Positions 1-20,035 of a DNA stretch of 64,000 nt are shown here, piece after piece. The DNA is from a virus. The stretch is from the UHGV virus genome UHGV-0209617; one strand, 5' to 3'. Below the pieces are notes generated by a model that was not told the origin of the DNA, did not search any database, and was given only the letters and a program-made list of their open reading frames with translations. Position 1 is the stretch's first letter, and every line of letters starts with the position of its first letter. Position numbers and translations under genes: made by a program.

Positions 1-324
1 ATGGTGCAGAATCTTGAAGGAATGGGATTTACGGTAGTTCCCTTTGGACAGGGCTTTAAGGATATGAACCTGCCTACCAAGGAACTTATGAAGCTGACAT
101 TGGAAAAAAGAATAGCTCATGGAGGCCACCCGGTGCTTAGATGGATGATGGATAACATCTTCATAAAAACGGATCCGGCGGGAAATATAAAGCCGGACAA
201 AGAAAAATCCACAGAGAAGATTGACGGTGTGGTAGCAACCATAATGGCACTGGACCGAGCAATCCGCTGTGGATTGGATGATGATGAAAGCGTGTATGAT
301 GAACGTGGGATATTACTGTTGTAA
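1..324 (+). CDS. Phage terminase large subunit, C-terminal part (5' end lies upstream of window)
   Basis: 107 aa ORF aligns along its whole length with the C-terminus of the intact terminase at 38620-40227 (MVQNLEGMGFTVVPFGQG..GHPVLRWM..DKEKSTEKIDGV..DRAIRCGL); roughly 80% nucleotide identity by eye. Confidence 0.8.
   Translation: MVQNLEGMGFTVVPFGQGFKDMNLPTKELMKLTLEKRIAHGGHPVLRWMMDNIFIKTDPAGNIKPDKEKSTEKIDGVVATIMALDRAIRCGLDDDESVYDERGILLL
108..324 (+). repeat. Left copy of ~215 bp imperfect direct repeat (terminase 3' end), partner at 1048-1260
   Basis: 108-324 and 1048-1260 align at roughly 93% identity by eye; they flank the toxin-antitoxin cassette at 313-946. Confidence 0.8.
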
Positions 325-696
325 GGGTGGCATATCTGAAAGAGAAACCTTAGCATAAGCACCATTCTTTTTATCTTCTGGATGTGGTTCAAGTCCAATC
401 ACTGTAATAGCTTTATGGTCAGGTCCATACACCCAATACATACGCATGGCGCGGCTTGTTTTGTTTTCTAAATAAGATTGCCATACTTTCATTCCATATC
501 TTTTTGTAAGATCAGATATTTCATGGGTGTTCAAACTAGGATAAAATTGGTTTTCCGAGAGCAGCTTCATGGTTTTACCCCATTTTTTATAGAGTTGAAC
601 GTCTGACTTTGATATTGTGCCTTCAGCATTTGATTTTTTGAGTCTGGTCCATAAAGCAAGTATTTCAGGAATACCCAAGTGAATAGAAAATTTCAT
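313..696 (-). CDS. Putative toxin of a type II toxin-antitoxin pair (family not recognised)
   Basis: 127 aa from internal ATG at 696 (MKFSIHLG..); start lies 4 nt downstream of the stop of the AbrB-type gene on the same strand; family not identifiable by eye. Confidence 0.4.
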   Translation of the reverse strand: MKFSIHLGIPEILALWTRLKKSNAEGTISKSDVQLYKKWGKTMKLLSENQFYPSLNTHEISDLTKRYGMKVWQSYLENKTSRAMRMYWVYGPDHKAITVIGLEPHPEDKKNGAYAKVSLSDMPPLQQ

Positions 697-700
697 AATA

Positions 701-946
701 TCAGAACTCCGATAAATCAATTGCTTCAGAAACATTTCCCACAGTTATATTTTTTACAGCATTATCCATCATTTTTAGGGTATTTGCGGATATTTCTGCA
801 GGAACCACAAGCTCACGAGGTTCAAGAAGAATGAAGCCATTATCATATTCCTTAACATTGTAGTACTCATGAGAGGCACCTCTTAATGTAAGGCGTTTTT
901 TGGCATCAAGATGTGCATTATAGTTTGTTCTTATAGCAGCTTCCAT
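701..946 (-). CDS. AbrB/SpoVT (MazE-like) family antitoxin
   Basis: 81 aa; AbrB/SpoVT-like swapped-hairpin signature (KKRLTLRGASHEYYNVKEYDNGFILLEPREL); immediately upstream of and coupled to the 313-696 ORF. Confidence 0.55.
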   Translation of the reverse strand: MEAAIRTNYNAHLDAKKRLTLRGASHEYYNVKEYDNGFILLEPRELVVPAEISANTLKMMDNAVKNITVGNVSEAIDLSEF

Positions 947-1047
947 AATTTTTACCTCCGTTCATAATGGTGGGATTTCCCACTGTTGTATATATCTATT
1001 TTAAACTAAAAAGAAATTTTTTTCAAGAGTAAAATGTAGAGAAACGA

Positions 1048-1260
1048 ATAGTTCATGGAGGCCACCCGGTGCTTAGATGGATGATGGATAATATTTTCAT
1101 AAAAACGGATCCAGCGGGAAATATAAAACCGGACAAAGAAAAATCCACAGAGAAGATTAACGGTGTGGTAGCAACCATAATGGCGCTAGACCGTGCAATC
1201 CGCTGTGGATTGGATAATAGTGAAAGTGTTTATGATGAGCGTGGAATATTACTTATCTGA
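1048..1260 (+). pseudogene. Terminase large subunit C-terminal fragment (right copy of direct repeat)
   Basis: ORF 1069-1260 (63 aa, LRWMMDNIFIKTDPAGNIKPDKEKSTEKINGVVATIMALDRAIRCGL) duplicates the last ~70 codons of terminase; no N-terminal body. Confidence 0.7.
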
Positions 1261-18378: not shown

Positions 18379-18418
18379 AAAATCCGCAAGCAGTGATTAT
18401 GCTGTTTGCGGATTTTTT
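18377..18418. terminator. Bidirectional intrinsic terminator between convergent genes
   Basis: AAAAAATCCGCAAGCAG..CTGTTTGCGGATTTTTT, about 15 bp stem with one mismatch, A-run and T-run on either side. Confidence 0.6.
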
Positions 18419-19601
18419 ATTTGCCCTTTTGAACTTTGATGCGATGGGAACGTTGATTATTTGCGTTTCTACAGTTACTGCAACAATATTTATTTCTACT
18501 ATTGGATGTCTTTACTAAGAAATATTTATGGCAAGAAGGATTGGCACACTTTCTATATATTTCAGATCCGGGTTTCATGTAGAAAATAGAAAAATATAAT
18601 GCAGAAAGCAATGATGGTGCCTTCCACGACGGTTCCAGTGAATTGGGACTGTAGAAAGGTTTTATACTTCTGGTATTATGATTTATTTCCCCACTTAAAA
18701 CGAGTCGTGCGATAAGAGTAGCAGCCTCTTTTAATGGACTGTTAAATTTGCTGAAATCTGGACTACTATAGTATTCAATGCCGCCCTCGAAAGTTACAGC
18801 TTTTATTACACCAACAGAATGCATATAGTGAAACAGGAATTCAACCATTAGTCGGAGCTTCTTGGATTGAATATTGTTATTCTTGTAAGCAATAGTAACC
18901 TGGCGATACAGCGTATCATTAATTCCAGGATAATCGTATGTAAATGTTTCTCCGTTTGAAATATCATCATATTCATCAGCATTTAATTCATATGAAGGAG
19001 CATAAATCATGTCTTTTACGGTAATAGATTCTGTTTCAGAGGATTGCTGTAGTGAATCGATAGAGGCTTGATTTCTGATGCTATCATGAAATGGATGCCG
19101 ATAGGTTGAATAAGTAATTCGTGCAGTGCCATTAAGCGTAACTTGTGTCCCAAGAAGCAAATACAAAGTTAAATGTAGAATCTGTTCATAATCAAGTGAT
19201 GGTTTTTCCACTGCGGCCATAAGGAGAACTGTAGCCTTTATTCGATTCAAGACTTCTACAAGCGCTACTATATCAATTTCCGTTCCTTCGGGCGAAATAG
19301 GAAGTAGATAACCATGTTCCTCGAAAAAACCAAGGACCTTTTTTACATTGGTTGCCGGAAGCGATATCAGAGAACCGAGAACATTTTTATTTTGAAGTGA
19401 ACCGTGTGGAGTCGTTAAACATAAACCTCGGCTTCCGCTAAAGGCATAATTTATAATTTCATCATTCACGGGATAGACTGTTAATATTTTATGCGCCTGC
19501 CCGTCCGTCTTTAAGACTTCTTCTATTCTAAATGTACATTTTTTGCAACTCAAAGAAAAATAATCGTTGCTAAGATTGAAAAAATTGTCTAACTCAGTCA
19601 T
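18417..19601 (-). CDS. Hypothetical protein with C-terminal CGNR-type zinc finger
   Basis: 394 aa; C-terminus CANPSCHKYFLVKTSNSRNKYCCSNCRNANNQRSHR fits the CGNR zinc-finger pattern; N-terminal 330 aa unrecognised. Confidence 0.5.
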   Translation of the reverse strand: MTELDNFFNLSNDYFSLSCKKCTFRIEEVLKTDGQAHKILTVYPVNDEIINYAFSGSRGLCLTTPHGSLQNKNVLGSLISLPATNVKKVLGFFEEHGYLLPISPEGTEIDIVALVEVLNRIKATVLLMAAVEKPSLDYEQILHLTLYLLLGTQVTLNGTARITYSTYRHPFHDSIRNQASIDSLQQSSETESITVKDMIYAPSYELNADEYDDISNGETFTYDYPGINDTLYRQVTIAYKNNNIQSKKLRLMVEFLFHYMHSVGVIKAVTFEGGIEYYSSPDFSKFNSPLKEAATLIARLVLSGEINHNTRSIKPFYSPNSLEPSWKAPSLLSALYFSIFYMKPGSEIYRKCANPSCHKYFLVKTSNSRNKYCCSNCRNANNQRSHRIKVQKGK

Positions 19602-19639
19602 AAAAAACTACTCCATATTTCCTTGCCCCTCGTAGAAGG

Positions 19640-19800
19640 GTCTTTTTTTATGTCGAAAAGTAAGTGATTACATAAGTAATAATGTAATTATAACGCTTAC
19701 TATTGCTTGTTTCAAGCTAGTATAGTAATGAAATACACAGAAAGTAAGTGATTATATCAGAAATTTACTTACTATACTGAAATTCTTATACTTAAAGACA
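19640..19800. repeat. AT-rich repeat cluster at cargo/prophage boundary
   Basis: AGTAAGTGATTA at 19663 and 19745; CTTACTAT at 19707 and 19770; short inverted matches between them. Confidence 0.4.
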
Positions 19801-20035
19801 GTGAAGGACAACCAAACTTTATATACAGCGGAGGTGTTTTTCACATCCCTGTTTCAATGTTCATCGCCTGATCAGCGATGCCCAGAGCGGAGAAACGGAC
19901 ACAAGTAAATATCAGTCAACCCACTGGGACGGTTGGCCAGCTAAGAAATGAGGATTTCATTCTTATGGCCAATTATTATGGGAAGTTCAGTGTGGGTCCT
20001 CATTTCGGTTTTCAGACCGAAGGAGGGTCTACACG

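Follow-up and report, generated by a model that had tools for sequence, protein, structure and literature searches.

A probable two-sided prophage scrap, a composite segment and the left arm of a neighbouring prophage in a variable zone of Anaerovibrio

Within the window, the 64,000-nucleotide stretch of viral genome UHGV-0209617 analysed here, positions 1-2259 are very probably an inert scrap of an old prophage, A', followed by an "island" of four parts of which the last is the left arm of the intact prophage B with its restriction-modification (RM) operon. With Anaerovibrio as the host, the locus amounts to an ordinary prophage graveyard within a zone that varies between strains. A first-pass annotation had suggested a second prophage deleted from its portal gene onward, its structural region replaced by one island of about 17 kb. 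The main value of the results is a correction of element boundaries: the prophage's own RM arm had been assigned to the neighbouring "island" because a step in G+C content was taken for an element boundary, and the exact boundaries come from comparison with strains lacking each piece.

The phage remnant at the left end of the window

The window opens with the 3' end, 107 codons long, of a terminase large subunit gene (TerL' copy 1, 1..324, plus strand), and positions 1-321 match positions 195-283 of the 286 in the Pfam TerL_nuclease model (E 2e-15). The product is 84% identical in amino acids to residues 449-555 of the TerL of prophage B, whose intact TerL and portal genes are found in the window at 38560-40227 and 40947-42224. 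In the 367 bp of upstream DNA read from the identical contig L001, the TerL' homology runs leftward past the window start to -59. A second copy of the TerL tail (1033..1260, plus strand, the last 75 codons; tblastn match 1033-1257), which had been missed in the first pass, matches copy 1 at 92% DNA identity, the two forming direct repeat D3 (103-317 / 1039-1253). The copies are separated by a moron cassette of two overlapping small ORFs on the minus strand (313..946; 127/140 aa and 81 aa), which is 98-99% conserved in sister strain L063; the pair has no match in Pfam, NCBIfam or PADLOC and, to judge from its arrangement, might be toxin-antitoxin-like. The second moron cassette is a 131-aa orphan ORF (1249..1644, minus strand), convergent with TerL' copy 2 and 97% conserved in L063, for which family searches returned no match.

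The portal fragment, portal' (1778..2269, plus strand), consists of codons 1-160 of an HK97-type portal gene and three foreign codons. Positions 1778-2266 match positions 2-107 of the 321 in Pfam Phage_portal (E 1.6e-40), and the product is 65% identical in amino acids to the N-terminus of the prophage B portal. Codon 160 is where the alignment with 93%-identical longer portals ends, full length being about 425 codons, and the DNA match to the intact A-type portal genes of L019/L020 (86.7%), relatives whose head and tail module is complete, ends at 2259/2260. Pfam matches and protein identity thus bear out the terminase tail and the portal of about 160 codons that had been proposed for the window start. 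No other structural-gene homolog was found in positions 1-20000, nor any for protease, capsid, tail, lysis or integrase genes. With no more than the final 120 codons of TerL and only 160 of the portal, A' cannot yield a particle; it shows the features of a defective remnant, namely phage-gene homology, truncation and a chromosomal site that is differently filled in related strains. These comparisons support the reading of 1-2259 as what is probably left of a second phage, one from the lineage of prophage B. That much of the earlier proposal stood. A tandem of A and B at one att site was rejected: neither an integrase nor a Xis relic occurs in 1-20000, the LMW-phosphatase (LMWPc) gene has a single displaced 5' end, and A' lies between Fic and p80, a site other than the att site of B.

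On its left side A' is bordered in the window's own strain by an IS3-type element (C-terminus of an rve_3 transposase) that adjoins TerL' 60 bp left of window position 1 and was likewise overlooked in the first pass. This IS cuts TerL at about residue 436; every assembly breaks there, and none of the exact-protein look-ups near the window start crossed it. In L063, a sister strain without B, TerL' begins at residue 256, and to its left come 0.7 kb of unassigned DNA, a CRISPR repeat, Fic and uvrA. Phage genes upstream of the terminase had been named beforehand as a test of the first-pass model; in L063 host DNA was found there and no phage genes. The proposed deletion from the portal onward is not supported either, the relic being cut on both sides. 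Going by the left edge in L063 and the IS cut in the window's strain, A' is an internal scrap truncated at both ends. More phage A genes could lie beyond the IS in the window's strain, where assemblies break. Inside the window, neither a second IS copy nor CRISPR repeats were found as rearrangement substrates.

The composite segment from 2260 to 10,286

Strain comparison splits the supposed single island at 3169/3170, at about 8992 and at 10,286/10,287. Two signal-peptide ORFs lie in its first part (2260..3169, minus strand), one encoding a 166-aa protein (2601-3101) and the other decayed (about 2430-2540). In L063 the breakpoint 2259/2260 is identical, and positions 8423-11395 of this strain run straight across it at 97.4% identity, diverging from 3169/3170. 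Up to 3,169 the portal'/sec166 junction is common to a strain without the rest, and it is ancestral.

The second part is a strain-specific, A+T-rich block of 5.8 kb (3170..8991, plus strand) with 32.5% G+C versus 43-46% for the host. It is absent from L063 and L083, both of which have other DNA there, in L063 a second phage remnant. The block carries a tandem family of secreted-protein genes (3820-4383, the truncated copy 4492-4803, 7390-8016 and 8118-8690), whose products are 43-48% identical (repeats D1-D5 are further evidence for the block), together with the gene of an orphan 536-aa protein, p536 (4812-6422), with an invariant RNPPAH, and that of a 225-aa secreted protein (6577-7254). The secreted proteins have no match in Pfam, NCBIfam or PADLOC, p536 has two relatives among 5.8e9 proteins, and neither p536 nor sec190 has relatives in viral contigs. 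The AlphaFold2 model of p536 (pLDDT 53.5) was too poor for a fold search, and the moderate model of sec190 (pLDDT 66) gave no significant fold match in the PDB (best TM 0.31). Given the lack of viral-contig relatives and family matches, the block may have no connection with phages or may be cargo that a lost phage left behind. The earlier claim of non-phage cargo behind the portal holds in so far as A+T-rich accessory DNA follows it, but not for the 9.6 kb with the RM operon, which are prophage B.

The third part (8992..10286, plus strand) is identified by strain comparison as native chromosome upstream of the LMW-phosphatase gene, being 97-99% identical to L083 11131-11440 and 12449-12544 and matching L063 as well. 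It contains p80 (9046-9288), p89 (9873-10142) and a split zeta-toxin-like P-loop gene (9257-9460, 9567-9830) with weak Zeta_toxin/P-loop matches; an intact pair of a 70-aa gene and a Zeta_toxin gene is carried by L085. A tblastn search with the LMWPc N-terminus located, at 10256-10291, the 5' end that the LMW-phosphatase gene had originally, now displaced (MNKILFICHGSV*).

The zone is filled differently from strain to strain. In L063 the order is uvrA-CRISPR-Fic-TerL'-...-portal'-sec167-AsnC-154aa-portal#2-ClpP'-Xis-int'-p80-MNT/HepT-LMWPc, with three stacked units of a TerL 3' tail and a convergent small gene, putatively defence- or TA-like, versus two in the window, one of the L063 units holding a 548-aa protein with an Rx4H motif. 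The near-empty site of L083, also without B, reads Fic-solitary repeat-45 bp-p80-MNT/HepT-LMWPc, and in L084 a different prophage occupies the zone.

Prophage B and its left arm

Relative to L063 and L083, positions 10,287-64,687 are a single insertion of 54.4 kb flanked by the 10-bp direct repeat TGCCACGGCA. The core was defined by base-by-base comparison of attL, attR and attB, with attB taken from these two strains without B; attL lies at 10,277-10,286 (plus strand) and the attR copy at window-equivalent positions 64,688-64,697, about 690 bp past the window end. Because 10,287-64,687 is one insertion bounded by this repeat, 9.6 kb of the "island" belong to prophage B, this right part of it being inserted as one piece with the rest of B up to 64,687. 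No direct repeats of at least 13 nt were found between the right junction of B and the left 20 kb; the core emerged only from the comparison with strains without B.

Prophage B lies inside the host LMW-phosphatase gene, at its 5' end; attL retains the truncated original 5' end of the gene, and the one at attR is supplied by the phage. Its right end carries a 421-aa integrase (PF02920 and PF00589) and a Tn916-type Xis. Downstream of the integrase, on a contig identical to the window, follow the host genes LMWPc, DUF896, pycB, aminotransferase, uvrD and corA; L004 is identical to the window across its last 12 kb. Excised B is predicted to give the attP junction GTATGCCACGGCAGCGTATAAGG, and a search of IMG/VR for this circular junction gave no match. 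The gene rumA, beside which the relatives L029, L030 and L042 are found, was rejected as the target of B, no rumA fragment being present in the window or its flanks.

The outermost left arm (10287..12340, plus strand) consists of a Sel1/DUF6273 gene (10560/10623-11441; Pfam DUF6273, E 2.6e-30) and about 0.9 kb of gene debris. The debris (11441-12440) had no match in phage records, and its translated pieces had none in Pfam. Variants of B in L012/L013 have extra Sel1/DUF6273 genes in the outermost left arm, and 10,287-12,340 could be a separate entry into the left end of B.

The conserved left arm (12341..19848, plus strand), delimited by Pfam, PADLOC and synteny, starts with a palindrome (12344-12389) and a Phd-like gene (12434-12688). 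These are followed by the genes of two N6-adenine methyltransferases (12700-14355 and 14333-15406; Pfam N6_Mtase/Eco57I/TaqI_C and MethyltransfD12, PADLOC MTase_II), a McrB-like AAA_5 subunit (15411-17081), a LlaJI-type endonuclease (17098-18378; Pfam RE_LlaJI, E 2e-28) and, on the strand opposite to the RM operon, a 394-aa CGNR zinc-finger protein (18417-19601). PADLOC REase_II matches in the operon reached E 1e-117 and 2e-138. Two methyltransferases together with the McrB-like AAA+ subunit and the LlaJI-family endonuclease give the operon the composition of a LlaJI/SpyI-type system, which it is predicted to be. The order of RM and CGNR genes beside DUF2800/DUF2815/PolA is kept in 21 of 34 genome loci from diverse Firmicutes, and the RM-CGNR-DUF2800 order also occurs in phage Φ1207.3 (orf12-25) and in a Christensenellales phage.

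The replication module of B starts with a DUF2800 RNA motif (19849..20002, plus strand; Rfam RF02960, 81.8 bits with a gathering score of 60.2). Position 19,880, where the first-pass annotation had set the right edge of its island, falls inside this motif; the G+C content steps there from 37% to 46%, and no element boundary coincides with it. Further genes of B assigned by Pfam encode a DUF2800 nuclease, a DUF2815 ssDNA-binding protein, a family A polymerase, a VapE/D5 primase, a VRR-NUC protein and a SNF2 helicase, in addition to an HK97-type TerL, portal and capsid, and B is syntenic with AY657002 and PV036454. By its genes and its repeat-bounded insertion, B is a predicted temperate phage of the Φ1207.3 / 'Ca. 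Heliusvirales' type.

History of the zone and comparison with known systems

The proposed history is one in which several different phages would have inserted and decayed in the zone between Fic, with its CRISPR repeat, and the p80-TA-LMW-phosphatase segment. The right part of A' may have been lost by an old deletion or an illegitimate join at 2259/2260, which sister strains would then have inherited, and the left part by deletion, with the IS3-type element also abutting TerL' in the window's strain. The "island" comprises the ancestral junction 2260-3169, the block 3170-8991, native chromosome 8992-10286 and the left arm of B. Prophage B itself presumably entered the 5' end of the LMW-phosphatase gene by way of its Tn916-type tyrosine integrase at the core TGCCACGGCA, moving the original gene start leftward and bringing a new start codon region, and its RM operon may protect the lysogen.

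That A' was never resident here, and that the TerL-portal piece was captured as passenger DNA by recombination from an incoming or co-resident phage, for example remnant C', is unlikely. The scrap is an internal piece of 2.3-4.5 kb without att site or integrase of its own, its TerL tails, present two to three times and diverged to 92% identity, point to repeated recombination with related phages, and the zone has received several unrelated insertions; but two-sided decay of a resident prophage is a simpler account of the same facts, and the second remnant of L063, with the 3' end of an integrase at the right border of the zone, indicates that whole phages of the lineage integrated here. Equally doubtful is a reading in which the TerL-portal junction is a place of recurrent cassette capture with the dead scrap as reservoir, and the 5.8-kb block a functional secreted-protein family with a HEPN-like orphan. 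If the former were true, the conserved TerL tail would be a recombination handle by which the scrap swaps accessory cassettes with incoming phages; if the latter, the secreted proteins of the block would form a family not seen before, and its orphan would be a HEPN-like protein truly functional in the gut.

Slightly less credible still is the strong form of the first-pass model, with the prophage otherwise present upstream and everything from the portal onward replaced by a single 17-kb island reaching about 19,880. The TerL tail and portal stub do precede low-GC accessory genes, and the second remnant in place of the 5.8-kb block in L063 means that some replacement occurred. Against it, phage genes are missing upstream of TerL' in L063, att mapping and synteny give 10,287-19,848 to B and already contradict the model for the RM half, 8,992-10,286 is native chromosome, the 2259/2260 junction is older than the 5.8-kb block, and an integrase/Xis relic is absent from 1-20000. 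Insertion of B and the island into the portal gene of phage A, with its remaining structural genes downstream of B, would account for the sudden break of the portal after codon 160 and for so much foreign DNA beyond it, but is refuted by the host genes beyond the B integrase and by the portal stub in strains without B. An assembly or sequencing artefact, for which no supporting point was found, is refuted by the identical fragment with the same 163-aa product on three contigs from independent samples and by a 98% variant on 10 contigs, with eight distinct places in different samples among those listed; the TerL'/portal' junction, occurring in at least 11 independent metagenome assemblies, is accordingly real.

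With decay of a resident A' as the preferred reading, the zone is one in a common gut Anaerovibrio where a widespread phage lineage repeatedly lands and decays. Modest side results are the integration of a phage at the 5' end of a host phosphatase gene, whose start it replaces, a LlaJI-type RM operon with CGNR partner as conserved left arm of the lineage across bacterial classes, and the accumulation of accessory cassettes at the TerL-portal junction.

Like cryptic prophage remnants at integration hot spots, A' consists of late-gene fragments without an integrase that are truncated relative to intact homologs, is vertically inherited (97% identity, as for the flanking host genes) with its small accessory ORFs intact, and lies in a zone that holds other prophages or nothing in other strains. 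Unlike typical remnants it is an unusually small, interior piece that runs from the TerL 3' end to portal codon 160, and it stacks copies of the TerL 3' tail, each with a convergent accessory gene next to it. Prophage B resembles the Streptococcus phages Φ1207.3 / Φ10394.4 with their SpyI RM cassette (PMC4260502) and the 'Ca. Heliusvirales' gut phages (PMC11283538), to which the TerL and portal genes of both A' and B are 72-76% identical in DNA. B and Φ1207.3-type phages have in common the order methyltransferase(s), AAA_5 restriction subunit, LlaJI-type endonuclease and, on the opposite strand, CGNR zinc-finger protein, continuing with DUF2800, DUF2815, DNA polymerase A, primase, VRR-NUC and SNF2 helicase. 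B differs from them in its Negativicute host, Anaerovibrio, and in two N6-adenine methyltransferases in place of a C5 methylase, and it integrates in the LMW-phosphatase 5' end, whereas L029, L030 and L042 lie next to rumA; the integration site of Φ1207.3 is comEC (PMC4260502). The predicted RM operon of B resembles LlaJI of the Lactococcus plasmid pNP40 in its two methyltransferases, McrB-like AAA+ subunit and LlaJI-family endonuclease, but is prophage-borne, has a Phd-like gene and a palindrome in front of it, and always has the divergently placed 394-aa CGNR zinc-finger gene alongside.

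Remnant of a second prophage at the left end

Window 1-321 codes for the C-terminal 107 residues of a large terminase (Pfam TerL_nuclease, E 2e-15) and 1778-2266 for the N-terminal part of an HK97-type portal (Phage_portal, E 1.6e-40 over positions 2-107 of the 321-position profile), with 84% and 65% protein identity, respectively, to the matching ends of the genes of the intact prophage B (TerL at 38560-40227; portal of 425 aa at 40947-42224). These Pfam matches and the homology to B confirm the terminase tail and portal stub of the first-pass annotation, and its core idea, that a second, related prophage left a relic here, holds. 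No other homologue of the structural proteins of B was found in window 1-20,000. A second TerL tail copy, the last 75 codons at 1033-1257, shares 92% DNA identity with the first. The convergent minus-strand ORFs, a 127/140-aa and 81-aa pair between the two tails (313-946) and the 131-aa p131 after the second (1249-1644), gave no family match. The stub matches longer, 93% identical portals, one annotated from a Veillonellaceae MAG, to residue 160 and is divergent beyond. DNA homology to the A-type portal genes of two other contigs (L019 and L020), which precede a complete set of protease, capsid and tail genes and are themselves called in two pieces, stops at 2259/2260. That the portal fragment is an artefact is ruled out, because the exact 163-aa product occurs on three contigs from independent samples and a 98% variant on 10 contigs (shown for 8 distinct places from different samples).

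The relic had been thought to be cut only from the portal onward and is instead a two-sided scrap. Metagenome contig L001 matches the window exactly for 12,269 bases and reaches 367 bases further left, where Pfam rve_3 (E 7e-12) identifies a transposase C-terminus; the reading frame of TerL picks up 60 bp upstream of window position 1, beside the transposase end, and the assemblies of the window's own strain all end within this IS. The 95-kb scaffold L063 of a sister strain has no prophage B but contains this remnant (97.4% identity), in the order uvrA, CRISPR array, Fic, leader-like copy with solitary CRISPR repeat, 0.7 kb of unassigned DNA, terminase residues 256-555 (frameshifted), a 548-aa gene (minus strand), a 41-codon TerL tail, the same small ORF pair as in the window, a 75-codon TerL tail, p131, the 163-aa portal stub and the secreted protein sec167. 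Next come an AsnC-like gene, a 154-aa PD-(D/E)XK-like gene and another portal, with 70% identity to that of B, beside a ClpP protease that is truncated. Remnants of p125, Xis and p74 and the final 65 codons of an integrase follow, and then p80, the MNT/HepT pair, the low-molecular-weight phosphatase gene (LMWPc) and more host genes. By this order there are therefore no phage genes upstream of the terminase fragment in L063.

After every TerL 3′-tail copy (three in L063 5828-9868, two in window 1-1644) comes an accessory gene on the minus strand, convergent with the tail; the first of these in L063 codes for the 548-aa protein, which has the Rx4H motif RNIFAH and weakly matches HEPN_Apea. The TerL-portal gap of prophage B also holds an accessory gene (Doc/Fic, 40527-40901), as do the gaps of deposited relatives.

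Composition of the supposed cargo island

A single cargo island had been proposed from the portal stub to 19,880, and comparison with sister strains L063 and L083 splits it into a patchwork. G+C is 29-39% in window 1-20,000 and 42-51% in 20,000-60,000. The ancestral segment 2260-3169 holds a 166-aa signal-peptide protein, and its junction with the portal stub is common to L063 and the window up to 3169. The strain-specific block 3170-8991 has 32.5% G+C against 43-46% for the host and contains a 225-aa secreted protein and a tandem secreted-protein family (3760-4803 and 7372-8690) with a conserved upstream box, its members 43-48% identical to one another. A truncated family copy (4492-4803), 96-98% identical to 8111-8423 of the last member, lies immediately 5′ of an orphan 536-aa gene (4812-6422), which suggests a recent duplication or insertion. 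Among 5.8 billion proteins just two are related to the orphan, at 96% and 39% identity, and both share the invariant RNPPAH near its C-terminus; the predicted structure of the orphan is all-helical at low confidence. Family, viral-contig and fold searches with the proteins of the block gave no match. Native chromosome follows at 8992-10,286 and carries p80, p89 and, between them, a zeta-toxin-like gene that is split here but intact in L085.

The host is indicated by the exact PycB protein, whose annotations name Anaerovibrio lipolyticus and a Veillonellaceae MAG, and by thousands of 96-100% variants of the Fic gene annotated Anaerovibrio. In L083 (GCA_037351925.1) the site is nearly empty, with Fic, the solitary repeat, 45 bp, p80, MNT/HepT and the phosphatase gene; it aligns with window 8995-9304 and 10191-10286 and then runs into sequence 3′ of B. 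After Fic a different prophage is found in L084, a 1.1-kb insert in L085 and an IS30-like element with unrelated genes in L073-L075, and the Fic-p80 interval is therefore a variable zone. It begins exactly past the solitary CRISPR repeat and ends in four strains at the same TTAACTTAYAC (window about 8992). In the sister strains a CRISPR array with 28-bp repeat GTTAACCGCCGCACAGGCGGCTTAGAAA and 32-bp spacers lies 5′ of Fic, and a leader-like copy with the solitary repeat 3′ of it (L063 2945-3753 and 5070-5097; L083 9351-9739 and 11057-11084). The present arrangement would have formed by serial integration into this zone, together with deletions, insertion of the IS and TerL-tail recombination.

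Prophage B and its restriction-modification arm

Contig L004 matches the final 12 kb of the window exactly and continues into a 421-aa Tn916-type integrase followed by the host genes LMWPc, DUF896, pycB, aminotransferase, uvrD and corA. The attL, attR and uninterrupted sites were compared by base-by-base alignment. In L063 and L083 the uninterrupted phosphatase gene begins ATGAATAAGATTTTGTTTATCTGCCACGGCAATATTTGCCG. Window 10,256-10,291 retains this start and is foreign after TGCCACGGCA, yielding a 12-codon stub at attL (MNKILFICHGSV*), while at window-equivalent about 64664-64700 (L004 12715 onward) another start (MSKSILFVCHGN...) is fused to the remaining phosphatase gene at TGCCACGGCA. Hence 10,287-64,687 (54.4 kb) is a single insertion between copies of a 10-bp direct repeat, and B swaps out the 5′ end of the host phosphatase gene, giving it a new start and upstream region. 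Between the integrase gene and attR lie two 69-nt imperfect direct repeats, 87% identical (L004 12229-12297 and 12426-12494; window-equivalent about 64,180-64,440), which may be arm-type integrase binding sites.

By att alignment and synteny the defence half of the supposed island, the RM operon, is the left arm of B. Within 12,434-19,601 are a Phd-like gene, two N6-adenine methyltransferases, an AAA_5 McrB-like protein, a LlaJI-family endonuclease and, on the opposite strand (18417-19601, minus), the gene of a 394-aa protein that weakly matches a CGNR zinc finger. REase_II models of PADLOC match the endonuclease at E 1e-117 and 2e-138, and PADLOC has no model for the 394-aa protein. The arm resembled part of an island because of its lower G+C (37-39%); the AbiE cargo at the right end of B is equally A+T-rich (38%).

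With the 394-aa protein as query and one genome per species, 34 loci were obtained. LlaJI-type R genes adjoin its gene in 33, including loci without phage replication genes in reach. The 394-aa protein may act as a constant partner, or as a regulator, of LlaJI-type RM. On the other side, 21 loci carry a DUF2800/DUF2815/polymerase A/primase/SNF2 module as in B, in hosts including Enterococcus, Clostridium, Hathewaya, Anaerocolumna, Pelosinus and Acholeplasma. Window 12,359-25,175 (12.9 kb) has about 80% DNA identity to a contig of Enterococcus sp. PF1-24 (L030), and such identity between prophages of a Negativicute (Anaerovibrio) and Enterococcus suggests recent cross-class spread of the phage lineage.

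A 46-nt near-perfect palindrome at 12344-12389, just 5′ of the Phd-like gene and RM operon, is probably an operator; related GTAATTAC-containing sequences lie 5′ of the Phd-like gene in Oscillospiraceae and Enterococcus relatives. Some 0.9 kb of the left arm (11441-12340) is in-frame gene debris (e.g. ...LVKTDRRIEVIWLDGGVDGYEIPRYTPKGG*) with no intact ORF and no match in phage records or Pfam. Rfam hits above gathering score were DUF2800 RNA at 19849-20002 (plus), where the replication module begins, and, within B and 3′ of its polymerase gene, abiF RNA at 25221-25257 (minus).

The locus represents ordinary prophage decay next to a well-known phage type, and is of modest side interest. In Φ1207.3, orf12-15 encode SpyI methylase, AAA_5 subunit, LlaJI endonuclease and CGNR zinc-finger protein in the order of B, followed, as in B, by polymerase, DUF2815, primase, VRR-NUC and SNF2 (PMC4260502), and the gene order of B recurs in the deposited genome of a 'Ca. 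Heliusvirales' Christensenellales phage.
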